From contig OZ024743.1 in the NCBI GenBank assembly GCA_964016885.1, positions 154,008,001 through 154,072,000 on the forward strand: 64,000 nucleotides of DNA. The letters are read 5' to 3'. The notes below the pieces were generated by a model. That model ran no database searches and was not told the DNA's origin. It saw only the letters and a list, made by a program, of their open reading frames with translations. Each line of letters starts with the position of its first letter. Within the stretch, counting starts at the first letter, position 1. The stretch is from Eledone cirrhosa. Taxonomy: Eukaryota. Positions 21,342 to 57,213 of this stretch are shown in pieces. The position numbers and the translations under genes were made by a program.

Positions 21342-21386
21342 AATATTGGACTAGTTTCGATGTTGTTACATCTCATCAGCAATATT
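21342..21386 (-). ncRNA. Minimal type I hammerhead ribozyme, intact core
   Basis: aatattg-CTGATGA-gatgt-aaca-acatc-GAAAC-TA-GTC-caatatt. Confidence 0.92.
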
Positions 21387-21471
21387 TACCTATCTTCCGG
21401 CCTTTCTAGAGAATCGTGAAAGCACATATCGTTATATGCTTTTTCTATGAAAATTAGTAGTGGGCAGACCA

Positions 21472-21479
21472 ATTTGCAT
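21472..21479 (-). promoter_or_regulatory. Octamer ATGCAAAT conserved in the HHR repeat family (also 21939-21946, 56759-56766, 57089-57096)
   Basis: Perfect in all four units although the two subfamilies are otherwise strongly diverged; function is inferred. Confidence 0.5.
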
Positions 21480-21807
21480 AGAGCGTGAGTACGTACCGGT
21501 TCAACGGAGACGATAAAAACAAATAACGAAACGAAATTAAATTTCGTTTCGTTTGTAACTCACTTTTGAATGACTGACGCTTAAACAATTAAGTTAAAAA
21601 TGTACATCCACATATGTATACTGAAATACTAGTATGCATATGAATACACACACGTGTACATATGTAGATGTACCGTGTTTTTCACTGGTCACTTTACTGT
21701 GAGTGTCCAGCTATTCTGTATGTAAACACACAGACAAACCGATTTTTAGATTCATACTGGTTTTTGAGGAAAGACCTTTCTTCTATTCTCCAGAAAGCCA
21801 GACAAGG

Positions 21808-21852
21808 AATATTGGACTAGTTTCGATGTTGTTACATCTCGTCAGCAATATT
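21808..21852 (-). ncRNA. Minimal type I hammerhead ribozyme, intact core
   Basis: aatattg-CTGACGA-gatgt-aaca-acatc-GAAAC-TA-GTC-caatatt. Confidence 0.92.
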
Positions 21853-22576
21853 TACCTATCTTCCGGCCTTTCTAGAGTATCGTGAAAGCACATTATCGTT
21901 ATATGCTTTTTCTATGAAAATTAGTAGTGGGCAGACCAATTTGCATAGAGCGTGAGTACGTACCGGTTCAACGGAGACGATAAAAACAAATAACGAAACG
22001 AAATTAAATTTCGTTTCGTTTGTAACTCACTTTTGTATGACTGACGCTTAAACAATTAAGTTAAAAATATATATATGTATATATATATATATATATATAT
22101 ATATATATATATATATATATATATATATATATATATATATATAGTAATAATAATAAATTTGAAGACTAAAATCCAAAGAGGGCTCGATAAGGATAAATAT
22201 ATGTCAAATATATAAGAACCGTAGAGTTTCAGAAGATCCGGTTAAGCAATTCTTTGCTTAAACTTTAGTCTGCTATTTTAATATATATATATATATATAT
22301 ATATATATATATATATATATATATATATATATATATATATATATATATATATATATATATATATATATATATGTATATATATATATATATATAAATATAT
22401 ATATAAAAATATATAACAAATATATATATAAACATATTTTGCTTGTTTTACCACAACAAATTAAATATAACCTCTACATATATACAAGCGGAGCTGCTGA
22501 TGTATACCACCATTTCAAACTGCTAATCTTGAGTGAAACGTTGATGTAAATAATGAACTTACAATCACATGTTATA

Positions 22577-22623
22577 TGCCTTGAAAAGACCTACCATATG
22601 GTCGGACGAAACGGCTGTCGGCA
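22577..22623 (+). ncRNA. Hammerhead variant with U3-A8 core
   Basis: tgcc-TTGAAAA-gacctacc-atat-ggtcggac-GAAAC-GGCT-GTC-ggca; stem II 6/8 pairs. Confidence 0.55.
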
Positions 22624-22830
22624 ATACACTTGTTATAATGTCATAATAGTTCCTTTGTTCTTTTTCATTAATATATATATATATATATATATATATATAT
22701 ATATATATATATATATATATATATACATATATATATGTATATATATATATATATATGTATATATATATATATATGTATATATATATGTATATATATATAT
22801 ATGTATATAAATATATCTATATTATATTAT

Positions 22831-23021
22831 AGGGCAGTGGATTTGCAGTATCGGTAGAGGGTCGGACGGCATGTTTGCAGCATAGAGTTATGACCCTTTA
22901 TATTCTGAGTACAAATCCCGCCGAGGTTAACTTTACCTTTCATCCTTATGGGGTCGATAAAATAAAGTACCAGTAATACACTGGGATAATTGCTGGCCTT
23001 GTGCCAAAAGTAGAACAATTA
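22831..23021 (+). mobile_element. tRNA-derived SINE, family A
   Basis: Full-length match to 1769-1958. Confidence 0.9.
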
Positions 23022-53862: not shown

Positions 53863-54250
53863 ACATAGTCACTACTTTAAAGCCGATAGCGTATGGTCTT
53901 CAAAATACTTTTAATTAAACATACGGTATATTGCCAATTATACTATACATACATTCATGTATACATTGCTATTTCAGAGCAGCAATGCTAATACCTAATT
54001 TTTGCTGGACCGGCAATCGCTCTGTATAATCAGTTCCTGATTATTACTGGAATTCTATAGAATCCAACTTCTATAATTTTTGGCGAAAGCAGGGACTGCG
54101 TGGCTCTGATGATCGTCAACAGCGTGAAACAGAATGTTAGCTTCTCTCCCTTCTTTCGCCGAAAAGAAGTAAGTGACATAGTCACTACTTTAAAACCGAT
54201 AGCGTATGGTCTTCAACATGTTTTTAATTAAACATACGGTATATTGCCAA
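53863..54250 (+). mobile_element. 313-bp unit with 75-bp terminal redundancy carrying an extended hammerhead (retrozyme-like)
   Basis: 53863-53937 is repeated at 54176-54250. Confidence 0.75.
54077..54165 (+). ncRNA. Extended type I hammerhead ribozyme
   Basis: tttttggcgaaag-c-aggga-[ctgcgt]-ggct-CTGATGA-t-cgt-caaca-gcg-t-GAAAC-AGAAT-GTT-agct-[tctc]-tccct-t-ctttcgccgaaaa. Confidence 0.8.
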
Positions 54251-54764
54251 ATATTATGGCGATTGGGAGGAGAAACACTATATATATAATATATATGTCT
54301 ATATATATATATATATATATATATATATATATATATATATATATACAGAGAGAGAGAGAGAGAGAGAGAGAGAGAGAGAGAGAGAGAGAGAGAGAGAGAG
54401 AGAGAGAGAGAGAGAGAGAGAGAGAGCGGGAGAGAGAGAGAGATTGATCGATTAGACCTATAGCCAACCATACACTATATATTGCTCTGATTGTTGATTA
54501 TTTGATTAATTAATTCGTTATTGAGCCACTCGGTGAATGTTTGTACCTAATTGTGTATGGGTGGCTATATGGATATATGTCTAATCAATTTCTACGGGCT
54601 ATTAGAAATACTGGGTAAATCTTCTGTGGTCGTTGATCGCTGATAAAATAGCTATCACTTATTTATCTATTGTTTCTTCATAGGTACATTTTAAACTTAT
54701 AGCCTCGTTTAATTGATTTTTCTGTAGTTAATTATGGCGATTGGGAGGAGAAATACTGTATATA

Positions 54765-55502
54765 TTTTATGAAATGACTTTATGGACTTTAATTTAATTT
54801 TAATTAAATTTTTAATTAAATTCTAACAATATTTTTAAATCTTAACAATTGTTTTATCCTAAATTTAATTTTTTAACTTACCATTATAACTACTATAAAC
54901 ATAGCATAATGAACGTTATTTTTACGTTCAGAGTATTCATCCATGTAAAACTTATTTCTTCGTTCGCTTCGCTTCTCTTCACTATCACTATGCATAATCT
55001 TGTCGTTCCTTCTTCTTTCTTTCTCTTTTCTTCTCTCTCCCTTTCACTATTCTTTCTTACTCCCTTTCAATATTTTCCTCTCTCCCTCTCAATATTTTTT
55101 CTCTCTACCTTTTACGTCTCCATTCTTCCAACAGTTTAATTTAAATAAACCGTTGTTTTTCAATTTTTCTGACACTCATTTGCATACTCACTTATAACTT
55201 TGTATCACCCTCAATAAAATATTATCTCCACTATCCAGCGAACTTCAACCGTTAAGGTTGTCTTTTTTCCGGGTATGCCAATATTTATTTATGAAAGAAA
55301 TCTGTATATTTATCTCATGAAAGCGCGCCATAATTTGCCTTGGTTGCCCTTGAAATATAAATAATAAATAATTATGGTTTTATAAATATAGTTTCCATTT
55401 ATTAATATATCGAATATTTACTCCACTCTATGTTGAGTGCTTTATACCAGTTATAAAATTGTCAAGCTTGCTGAATCCCAACAAATTAAATATAACCTCT
55501 GC
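54765..55502 (+). mobile_element. PLE 3' UTR/pLTR related to the 10289-13735 element, with a decayed HHR
   Basis: 55350-55502 matches the reverse complement of 10289-10435; CTCATGA...GAAA at 55314-55355. Confidence 0.7.
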
Positions 55503-55830
55503 ATATATATATATATATATATATATATATATATATATATATATATATATATATATATATATATATATATATATATACATATATATATGTACATATATAT
55601 ATATACATATATATATATATATATATATATATATATATATATATATATATATATATATATATATATATATATATACATATATATATATATATATATATAT
55701 ATATATATATATATATATATATATATATATATATATATATATATGTATATATACATATACATATATATATATATATATATAAAATAAAGATAAATAAAAG
55801 TCAAATGATTAAAATTTAGCTTCGTTTATT

Positions 55831-55887
55831 ACTGCTATATATATATTTAAGTGACAGCCATCTTTGGCTGTGACCTCTTCAGGCAGT
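55831..55887 (-). ncRNA. Hammerhead motif with G12 substitution
   Basis: actgc-CTGAAGA-ggtcacagcca-aaga-tggctgtcact-TAAA-tatatatata-gcagt. Confidence 0.6.
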
Positions 55888-56641
55888 TTGAATTAGTATG
55901 GTATAGACAAGTAAATATGTTGTTGAGGTGTATAATATTGTCAATACTCTGATATGCCCAGTTCCTTGTTGGGTTGTTATTTCACTGAGGAACTGGAGTC
56001 ATATGACTCCAGTTACGCAGTGGTTAGAGCATTGGGCTGGTGATGTGTTGTTTCCTTGAGCAATTCACTTTATTTCATATTGCAACAGTTTACTCAGCTA
56101 TAGAAATGATATGATAGGACTGCAAAGTGGTCGTGGTGGTGCCATGGCAAAAAATCACTCTGCCCACCCCATACTGTAAAGTAGACTTGTAGGTGCCACG
56201 GAAAAAGGCACGCAGCTGTAAATGAGGTTCCTGTATGAGCAAGACAAGGTCAGCCGACCAGACACTGCCCACCACAGGACAACCCGTCCAACCCATGCTA
56301 GCGTGGAAGAACTGTGATGATGATGATGAAATCTATATATCTATATCTATAAATATATAAATATAAATATGTATACGTACATACATATATGTATACAAAC
56401 GTACACTAGTATGTATATACATATATACATGCACACACACATATATATATATATATATATATATATATATATATATATATATATATATATATATATATAT
56501 ATATATATATATATATGTACGTAAGGGTTTATCGAACATCTATTATAATTCTCGGTTTTTTTTGTAAACAAACAGCCCGAATTAGTAGCCGTATAGTGTT
56601 CGGCAACCATCGTGGCCCTTTTGTTCAAGACTGACTAAGGA

Positions 56642-56684
56642 ACGATGAAATAGTATCTAGCTTATTAGCTGTCATCAGCATCGT
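56642..56684 (-). ncRNA. Minimal hammerhead, decayed 3' core
   Basis: acgatg-CTGATGA-cagct-aata-agcta-GATAC-TA-TTT-catcgt. Confidence 0.7.
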
Positions 56685-57170
56685 ATACCTTCCTCTCAGT
56701 CGATTGATCGTTTGACTGTATATACTTTCCTTATGCATATTAACGACTGAGCAGCCAAATTTGCATATCGTGTGAGTTAGTCGGCCTAGTGTACCGAAAA
56801 CGATAAATGGAAAAAATGAAATTTCATTACTCACTCTTAGTACGGCTGATACTTAAATATAAGTATGTAAACGTACATACATATATGTATACAGACGAAC
56901 ACTAGTATGTATATATATACAAGCATGCACCATATATATATATGTACGTATGGGTTTACCGAACATGTATACATATATGTATGTACGCATGCATATAAGT
57001 ATGTACGTATACATACTTATATTTAAGTATCAGCCGTATTTTTTCCAGTTATCGTTTTCGGTATGCCCGGCTGATTAACTCACTCAATATGCAAATTAGG
57101 CTGCTCAGCCGTTAATATACATAATGAAAGTATATACCTCCAAACGTTAAATCAACTGACAGCAAGGTAT

Positions 57171-57213
57171 ACGATGATGACGATAGCTAAGAAGCTAGAA
57201 ACTAGTTCATCGT
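57171..57213 (+). ncRNA. Minimal hammerhead, C3 substituted
   Basis: acgatg-ATGACGA-tagct-aaga-agcta-GAAAC-TA-GTT-catcgt. Confidence 0.72.

Follow-up and report, generated by a model that had tools for sequence, protein, structure and literature searches.

Hammerhead retrozyme repeats of Eledone cirrhosa with a candidate snRNA-type promoter matched to host genes

Repeat units and hammerhead ribozymes

The window, the whole 64,000-nt stretch analysed, was sourced from Eledone cirrhosa (GCA_964016885.1, OZ024743.1, 154,008,001-154,072,000, forward strand), and contains the following repeat units and hammerhead ribozymes (HHRs).

21118..21585, minus: family A unit 1 (A1), period ~466 bp, (TA)n adjoining its 3' end
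21586..22070, minus: family A unit 2 (A2), with a short remnant of a third unit, truncated at its 5' end
56358..56960, minus: family B arm 1 (B1), one unit plus tail, 3' end in a TA-rich repeat
56965..57479, plus: family B arm 2 (B2), inverted relative to arm 1, 3' end at (TA)n
21342..21386, minus: type I hammerhead of A1, short palindromic stem III
21808..21852, minus: type I hammerhead of A2
56642..56684, minus: hammerhead of B1, damaged core (GATA instead of GAAA)
57171..57213, plus: hammerhead of B2, damaged core (A at core position 3)

The original prediction had placed repeat units with a common block order at both loci, and that order was present in all four units; only family A is a head-to-tail tandem (period ~466 bp), family B being a head-to-head inverted pair. 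The predicted profile-level relationship was borne out by an HMM of 42 family-B copies, which scored the A unit at 63.2 bits (E 8e-21); once the octamer and the HHR had been masked, the score was 9.2 bits against a shuffle maximum of 2.0 bits (n=200). Judged by these alignments, A and B are homologous units; families A, B and G share ancestry, while families D (two copies, one of which when used as a query matched mostly an adjacent unrelated repeat), E and H align barely to B. Comparison of four runs (contigs of unrecorded kind) recorded 22 variant sites in unit A1, with 0 inside the octamer, an observation with no bearing on expression.

Cleavage by the A1 hammerhead is predicted between 21349 and 21348 on the minus strand. 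Only the two A copies passed a strict HHR scan of the window, because both B copies have damaged catalytic cores, and Rfam at gathering threshold gave no match in the whole window; HHR core matches numbered 40,074 genome-wide and 0 in the control. Stems said to differ completely between families and yet to pair were found to do so: 10 of 13 HHR pairs were changed on both sides with 88% of cells pairing, a level reached by 0 of 500 shuffles (12 copies from 7 families). The HHR stems thus covary between families. GGTA immediately 5' of the HHR was considered as a splice donor and rejected, since in the fold its bases pair to lengthen stem I.

Element class and insertion marks

The suggestion that the family might be undescribed did not survive, the class being known as non-LTR retrozymes, non-autonomous Penelope-like (pLTR) derivatives. 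The units are short, non-coding, tandem and present in many copies, each with a type I HHR with covarying stems, though both B copies in the window are damaged. Insertions bear Penelope-type marks, namely (TA)n targets, two 3' ends, 5' truncation, inversion and partial tandems; for family A, 25 of 29 3' ends lay at (TA)n and 25 of 29 at two sites ~70 nt apart.

As described in the accessible portions of the two sources (Cervera and De la Pena 2020, PMC7229834; Li et al., bioRxiv 10.64898/2026.07.22.740005), metazoan non-LTR retrozymes likewise are non-coding, with tandem units a few hundred bp long, one type I HHR per unit and a short palindromic stem III, at high copy number and with co-occurring PLEs; those portions name no promoter, whereas the Eledone units carry a candidate matched to host genes. 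Penelope-like pLTRs (PMC4209133, PMC8557442, PMC11167929) share with the Eledone units the HHR, partial tandems, inverted 5'-truncated copies, two 3' ends (the tail) and AT-rich or (TA)n targets. The Eledone units differ from them in having no ORF, in a tail of ~70 nt in A as against 30-40, and in lacking homology to the three PLE families examined. Among those three families the search turned up no autonomous element whose pLTR is homologous, nor did their sampled pLTR regions contain the octamer-containing element upstream of the HHR. Pfam gave no match on the PLE-like ORFs, for which reason their identity rests on motifs read by eye.

Host snRNA-class promoters

Seven of nine intact-looking host U6-class promoters (U6 x3, U6atac, MRP and tRNA-Sec x2) shared a proximal element, TATGCAAAT(T/G)AG, or written out TATG(C/G)(A/T)AAT(T/G)AG, at -76..-79, with a TATA box at an offset of 46-48; as a side result, this provides a candidate U6-class promoter consensus for Eledone cirrhosa. 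The training set left out a SINE-interrupted U6 cluster, L181, L182 and RNase P, together with 12 further U6 matches and 7 of 8 U6atac matches that had no proximal element and mostly altered 5' ends. The held-out 7SK and RNase P had no such element, and the best score in 17 host Pol II upstream clusters was 7.9 bits.

The distal role originally assigned to the octamer failed, as it occurred at -300..-150 in 0 of 69 host U1/U2/U4/U5 genes. The host distal motif is instead TTAYYTCCCTT near -260 (two or fewer mismatches in 11 of 25 promoter clusters), and a vertebrate-type distal element 170-250 bp upstream was rejected for the repeats on the grounds that this motif differs and that their octamer lies only ~73 nt before the predicted start.

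The octamer-containing element of the repeats

The octamer ATGCAAAT, originally described as intact in four units, was located at 21472-21479(-), 21939-21946(-), 56759-56766(-) and 57089-57096(+), separated from stem I by ~86 nt in family A and by 74-75 nt in family B (~75-85 nt had been claimed). The window contains 14 octamers as against a mean of 7.0 in 100 shuffles, 0 of which reached 14. In an alignment of rows chosen with an intact octamer, 9 adjacent columns were fixed as against 3 of 37 others, in keeping with the expectation that the octamer would be steadier than its flanks; within 38 B copies the difference was no more than modest (0.026 vs 0.068; rank 15 of 207 windows). The motif containing it is present in six HHR families, lying 89-107 nt upstream of the HHR core in D, E and H. 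The elements scored with a host-only matrix, and the associated predicted features, are as follows.

21460..21480, minus: octamer-containing element of A1, 18.6 bits, also 5' arm of a predicted hairpin
21927..21947, minus: octamer-containing element of A2, 18.6 bits
56747..56767, minus: octamer-containing element of B1, 16.0 bits
57088..57107, plus: octamer-containing element of B2, 20.5 bits
21432..21439, minus: TATA-like box of A1, offset 41 from octamer, inside second predicted hairpin
56718..56725, minus: TATA-like box of B1, offset 42, inside palindrome
57130..57137, plus: TATA-like box of B2, offset 42
21406..21409, minus: predicted transcription start of A1, 27-30 nt before HHR core

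On the sense strand only, the four units of the window thus scored 16.0-20.5 bits, and copies of A, B, D, G and H 14.1-20.5 bits (antisense at most 5.7), as compared with leave-one-out host scores of 11.8-27.8 bits; the other 10 octamers in the window reached at most 8.2 bits, and the E copy L293 7.4 bits (p=0.12). Shuffle p values for those A, B, D, G and H copies were at most 0.01, uncorrected, with several matrices run over ~8 families. In two samples chosen by HHR core alone, a site of at least 12 bits lay upstream on the sense strand in 22/30 and 11/30, and antisense or downstream of the HHR in 0 and 0. The T/G variation following the octamer is common to host genes and repeats, the longest exact repeat-host matches are 11-15 nt, and the B2 element is a 15-nt exact match to a host tRNA-Sec promoter; a 16-bit site occurs also in an unrelated PLE family. 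Because this upstream motif matches host U6-class promoters, the repeats likely drive their own transcription.

When the octamer/TATA interval was compared with that of host U6, the proximal element proved to be shared, but the spacing was ~5 nt shorter in A, B and G (offsets of 41, 42 and 43-45, respectively), a U6-like 48 being confined to the D copy L270. The TATA-like box 41-45 nt after the motif in A, B and G therefore predicts a start just before the ribozyme, in B at 15-17 nt ahead of its core. The 5' ends of 100 B copies clustered clearly at neither the predicted start nor the cleavage site, which counts against the prediction: 64 lay between -190 and +47, and 7 at -20..-14, two of these being internal deletions.

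Choice of polymerase and alternative readings

Judged from motif spacing and content, Pol II is slightly favoured over Pol III for the predicted promoter. Host Pol II snRNA genes place a (T/C)CAGT PSE ~26 nt before a TATA-like box, and a PSE core at octamer+16 in the repeats has the same spacing. In both G copies this site ranked 1 of 420; for A and B, Pol II PSE+TATA scores there were negative (-6.7 to -19.3, ranks 3-34 of 420), and the Pol II PSE matrix alone was not significant for A, B or C. In 19 of 20 family E copies, the best sense-strand match to the host 3' box fell 30-61 nt past the HHR core, scoring up to 19.3 bits (background 1 in 451,506 positions at 16 bits or more), while A and B showed no 3' box (at most 4.7 bits) and no distal-element match. 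Family C, which has no octamer, carries a host distal element of 18.8 bits with a weak PSE match following 200 nt later, and 1 of 2 family F copies a 16.7-bit Pol II PSE+TATA. Insertions also contain the promoter region and cross T5-T7 runs. Since none of the host Pol II genes examined has a proximal octamer, the combination of octamer and Pol II spacing is a hybrid with no host example.

The motif and TATA-like box might alternatively constitute a U6-type Pol III promoter, starting before the HHR and stopping at the first T5-T7 run near the tail, with occasional read-through generating multimers. The confinement of the element to U6-class genes among host genes, the position of every run of four or more Ts in A and B at least 272 nt past the predicted start, and the one family D copy with a U6-like offset are all in keeping with this proposal. 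It is nonetheless considered unlikely: the offset is ~5 nt too short in A, B and G, the late T-run placement was not significant (64/500 and 104/500 shuffles), and family E carries a Pol II 3' box; moreover, copies include the promoter and have 3' ends at or past the T-runs, so that Pol III would need read-through.

Both the octamer and the TATA-like box lie inside predicted RNA hairpins, the A1 element forming a 5' arm opposite a 3' arm at ~21443-21457 (-), and the motif could have been kept as RNA, its hairpin arm serving as a recognition site for the mobilising RT or for a host protein while transcription proceeds passively from outside promoters. In most A, B and G copies the octamer hairpin has a folding energy of -6 to -12 kcal/mol, the A region folds with a z of -6.0, 71% of cells pair as against 29-49% when slid, and a Penelope protein binds an RNA stem-loop and primes there (PMC11167929). 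By way of contrast with the HHR stems, compensating pairs numbered 0 of 10 and the octamer arm was invariant despite partner mismatches (in rows chosen with an intact octamer), which favours a sequence-level constraint. The hairpin is also weak or absent in D and E copies, and would leave unexplained why the repeats and host promoters are identical over 11-15 nt, why a TATA-like box follows, and why C, E and F carry host promoter and 3'-box motifs; this reading is accordingly doubtful. It is quite improbable that the motif is a functionless relic of ancestral capture or common descent, with AT-richness flattering the host match. The shared descent of A, B and G, the twofold excess of octamers in the window and the weak PSE match would all accord with a relic, but not the fixed columns noted above (rows with intact octamer), which persist across families with rewritten HHR stems, nor the retention of the motif at its upstream position in D, E and H, which barely align to B.

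Comparison with other systems

The promoter of newt satellite 2 reportedly combines an octamer and a PSE in the vertebrate Pol II layout, whereas the Eledone octamer occupies the proximal position that it has in host U6-class genes, with a TATA-like box downstream; that of the schistosome HHR satellite is said to be of a tRNA-like internal type. So far as they are described in the available part of PMC2220036, newt satellite 2 (Coats, Zhang and Epstein 1994, cited therein) resembles the Eledone units as an HHR tandem repeat with an internal snRNA-type promoter (Pol II in the newt, candidate here), and the schistosome satellite (Ferbeyre 1998, cited therein) as an HHR repeat with its own promoter, which is there a Pol III promoter and here a candidate upstream snRNA-type element. 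The compact human RPPH1 promoter, according to the accessible text of PMC9652321, similarly has a distal element adjoining the PSE and can direct both Pol II and Pol III; unlike the Eledone repeats, RPPH1 is a host gene and not a mobile repeat. No U6-class or octamer promoter in an invertebrate retrozyme was found in the literature searched, which lay mostly outside subscription journals and bioRxiv supplements.

Proposed mechanism and significance

Of the self-promoting, self-cleaving family originally proposed, the homologous HHR families, covarying fold, constant octamer and match to host snRNA-class promoters all stand, while the distal role does not. The preferred reading, to which we assign about an even chance, is that of an HHR retrozyme with a borrowed host snRNA-type promoter. 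SNAPc or an octamer factor would bind the motif, which with the TATA-like box would direct a start 15-30 nt before the ribozyme, probably by Pol II; transcription would run through the next unit, A and B having no host 3' box, and dimer-assisted self-cleavage would yield RNA of unit length, probably circular. A Penelope-like RT-endonuclease would then reverse-transcribe it at (TA)n, and copies of more than unit length would restore the upstream promoter. More tentatively, retrozymes here may repeatedly have borrowed the host snRNA promoter toolkit, with A, B, G, E and H deploying the U6-class octamer module at Pol II spacing and C and F a plain Pol II PSE, each starting just before the ribozyme and with promoter and RNA hairpin possibly residing in the same bases. 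On that wider reading, snRNA-type self-promotion would hold for animal retrozymes as a general rule and not be a newt oddity.

What is likely new here is the candidate promoter matched to host genes, the repeat class itself being already known. Animal retrozymes are abundant in all tissues tested, according to the accessible portion of PMC7229834; the available parts of the retrozyme literature found do not state the source of their transcription, and newt satellite 2 was the sole snRNA-type precedent found. If the proposal is true, a housekeeping snRNA-type promoter in each unit would explain constitutive expression as well as the need for more-than-unit copies, and the model predicts the start site to within a few bases.

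Repeat units and their homology

The hammerhead ribozyme (HHR) repeats followed up here occupy three segments of the window:

21118–22070, minus strand: family A, two units in tandem
56358–56960, minus strand: family B arm 1, head to head with arm 2
56965–57479, plus strand: family B arm 2, head to head with arm 1

Alignment of all four units bore out the block order of the original prediction, and the homology proposed between the two families was upheld at profile level, a profile of 42 B copies recovering family A at 63.2 bits; with octamer and ribozyme masked, A still reached 9.2 bits, 200 shuffles yielding no more than 2.0. 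Both A units passed a strict type I hammerhead scan, and the core was damaged in both B copies of the window. The claim that the HHR stems differ yet still pair was likewise substantiated among 12 copies of seven families by two-sided changes in 10 of 13 pairs, the paired fraction being matched by 0/500 shuffles, a control inflated by related rows. Many A and B copies had GUU or GUA in place of GUC as the cleavage triplet (window 21349), the majority letter in one run of contigs (X1) being that of GUU. An additional HHR-like strict-scan match, with a 7-bp stem I and a long stem II, lay at 17726–17794 (plus strand).

Copy number, insertion marks and repeat class

Exact-match searches of the 3.0 Gb genome gave 40,074 sites for the A/B ribozyme core (control 0); for a second core pattern the figure was 16,699 (control 176), and for a subset of this pattern 798 (control 22). 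Copies formed partial tandems with inverted, 5′-truncated arms; 25 of 29 mapped family A 3′ ends entered (TA)n, and 25 of 29 mapped at two sites some 70 nt apart. These marks are assigned as Penelope-type by comparison with Penelope-like elements (PLEs), for which the relevant published passages describe partial tandems, inversions and a tail (PMC8557442), priming at two sites at AT-rich DNA (PMC11167929), and HHRs in the terminal repeats (pLTRs) that act as dimers (PMC4209133). In the portions consulted, one source calls tandem HHR repeats non-LTR retrozymes (PMC7229834) and another treats them as non-autonomous PLE derivatives (bioRxiv 10.64898/2026.07.22.740005), so that the class is already known. 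By those features open to sequence testing, the A/B element behaves like a non-LTR retrozyme.

Among the PLE-like families of the genome was a young one whose 738-aa frames are intact and which has an HHR and (TA)n ends; its pLTR contained no octamer and bore no significant resemblance in sequence to A or B, and two other PLE-like families likewise showed no significant homology to either. Its RT and GIY-YIG-like motifs were read by eye (no Pfam match), it possibly belongs to the Hydra clade, and intact copies occurred in 4,011-bp tandems (L339). Its pLTR and the end of the family B tail had a 12-mer in common (E 0.33). A 5′-truncated copy lay at window 11878–13554 (minus strand), with an inverted pLTR piece at about 13555–13740; pieces of two more GIY-YIG PLE-like families, each matched at least 150 times in the genome, lay at 9242–9718 (plus strand) and 14330–15200. 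Close to an HHR match at another locus (L167, about 1650–3600) was a Gly/Cys-rich low-complexity open frame of 649 aa.

Host snRNA-class promoters

The host set comprised 89 loci (U1, U2, U4, U5 and U6), which fell into 23 upstream clusters. In 69 Pol II genes, a (T/C)CAGT core lay at −55 to −58 and a TATA-like stretch near −30. The octamer, originally taken for the distal snRNA element, does not fill that role in this host: it occurred at −300 to −150 in 0/69 and near −400 in 2/69, the distal motif being TTAYYTCCCTT, near −260 in 11 of 25 clusters.

At −76 to −79 the octamer recurred as TATG(C/G)(A/T)AAT(T/G)AG in three U6, one U6atac, one MRP and two tRNA-Sec promoters, each with TATA at an offset of 46–48, and hence in 7 of 9 intact-looking promoters of U6-class genes, which are of type 3 in vertebrates; U6 and U6atac matches without the proximal element were excluded from this count as likely retrocopies. 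It was absent from the RNase P and held-out 7SK promoters, which have a TCAGT-type PSE in place of the octamer-like element that lies at about −77 in U6-class genes (U6-class, 7SK and RNase P loci examined: L168–L170, L271, L280–L282, L342, L279). The 7SK core, at −63, lay about 6 nt further out than in Pol II genes; the RNase P promoter looks Pol II-type, and the held-out U12 promoter was of that type, as predicted. Six U6 array units (L174–L180, array on C19) carried a SINE-like insertion between proximal element and TATA box. In the parts of the sources concerned, human RPPH1, whose distal element adjoins the PSE, serves both polymerases (PMC9652321), and insect Pol III promoters conserve the distance from PSE to TATA (PMC1761439).

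Match of the repeats to the host element

A 20-column matrix built from the seven octamer-bearing host promoters alone scored A1 at 18.6, B1 at 16.0 and B2 at 20.5 bits in the window, and elsewhere other B subfamilies at 15.7–20.5, D at 16.1–16.9, G at 17.2–19.8 and H at 14.1 bits (p ≤ 0.01 for A, B, D, G and H, 300 shuffles; ribozyme-sense strand only). One family E copy (L293) gave 7.4 bits (p 0.12) and others up to 16.2; families C and F gave nothing with this matrix, and the remaining ten window octamers at most 8.2 bits. Background sites of at least 14 bits numbered 0 in 335,860 positions in one set and 7 in 451,106 in a second, four of these being the window units. Among the first 30 matches of two ribozyme-core-only searches, which contain tandem and related copies and are not independent, 22 and 11 had an upstream sense site of at least 12 bits, with none antisense or downstream.

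From TATA-like boxes at offsets of 41 (A), 42 (B) and 43–45 (G), starts are predicted 9–30 nt ahead of the HHR core, where the extended stem I has its 5′ edge; the 5′ ends of 100 B copies showed no clear start peak. In newt satellite 2, with a promoter reportedly of octamer/PSE make-up, the octamer is distal; unlike it, the A/B repeats lack a distal octamer, and their spacing also departs from that of host U6, the octamer–TATA offset of the repeats being about 5 nt shorter.

Promoter, hairpin or relic

That the octamer is kept solely as a hairpin arm is unlikely. In families A, B and G it does form one arm, the 5′ one, of a predicted hairpin, the TATA box lies within another, and 71% of cells pair among 14 copies (chosen with intact octamers, G pairing in a shifted register), yet no compensatory pair was found among them, and the octamer stayed fixed while its partners mismatched at two positions (10/14 and 8/14 rows), which is more than structure alone needs. 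Dual use of the same bases for promoter and hairpin is the simplest reading, though RNA-level recognition of the octamer sequence may operate. Across 38 B copies, octamer deviation was 0.026 against 0.068 overall (rank 15/207). That the motif is a relic is very improbable. Whichever polymerase is involved, the repeats probably carry an snRNA-type promoter. A literature search of partial coverage found none in an invertebrate retrozyme, and the passages concerned in two other papers (PMC2837043, PMC6155905) mention no promoter.

Polymerase use

Use by Pol II is an even prospect. A pyrimidine-CA core lay 16 nt after the octamer start; from it to TATA is about 26 nt, as in host Pol II genes. With a Pol II PSE+TATA matrix this site ranked 1/420 in both G copies and 3–34/420 in A, B, E and H; scores were negative in all but G, which leaves the Pol II evidence weak for A and B. 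Related families add support: a host 3′-box match followed the ribozyme in 19/20 family E copies, in family C the host distal element preceded a weak PSE match by 200 nt (201–214 in host U1/U2), and family F reached 16.7 bits for PSE+TATA in 1/2 copies. According to the part of PMC2220036 concerned, the snRNA promoter of newt satellite 2 is used by Pol II. Pol III is a doubtful candidate; T-runs late in A and B were not significant against shuffles.

Family E (L238–L257) is an old HHR family with the layout of an entire Pol II snRNA gene: the octamer element and a TATA-like box precede the hammerhead, a host 3′ box comes after it, and distal-element-like sites lie to either side. It could yield an RNA of roughly 70 nt, nearly pure ribozyme. 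Family C (L131–L160) forms 310-bp tandems without octamer; its host distal element overlaps stem I of the HHR, on the 3′ strand, and the PSE-like site lies 200 nt on, in the next unit.

The 3′ box was absent from families A and B, so that Pol II would continue through into the following unit, a read-through that the promoter-bearing insertions require.
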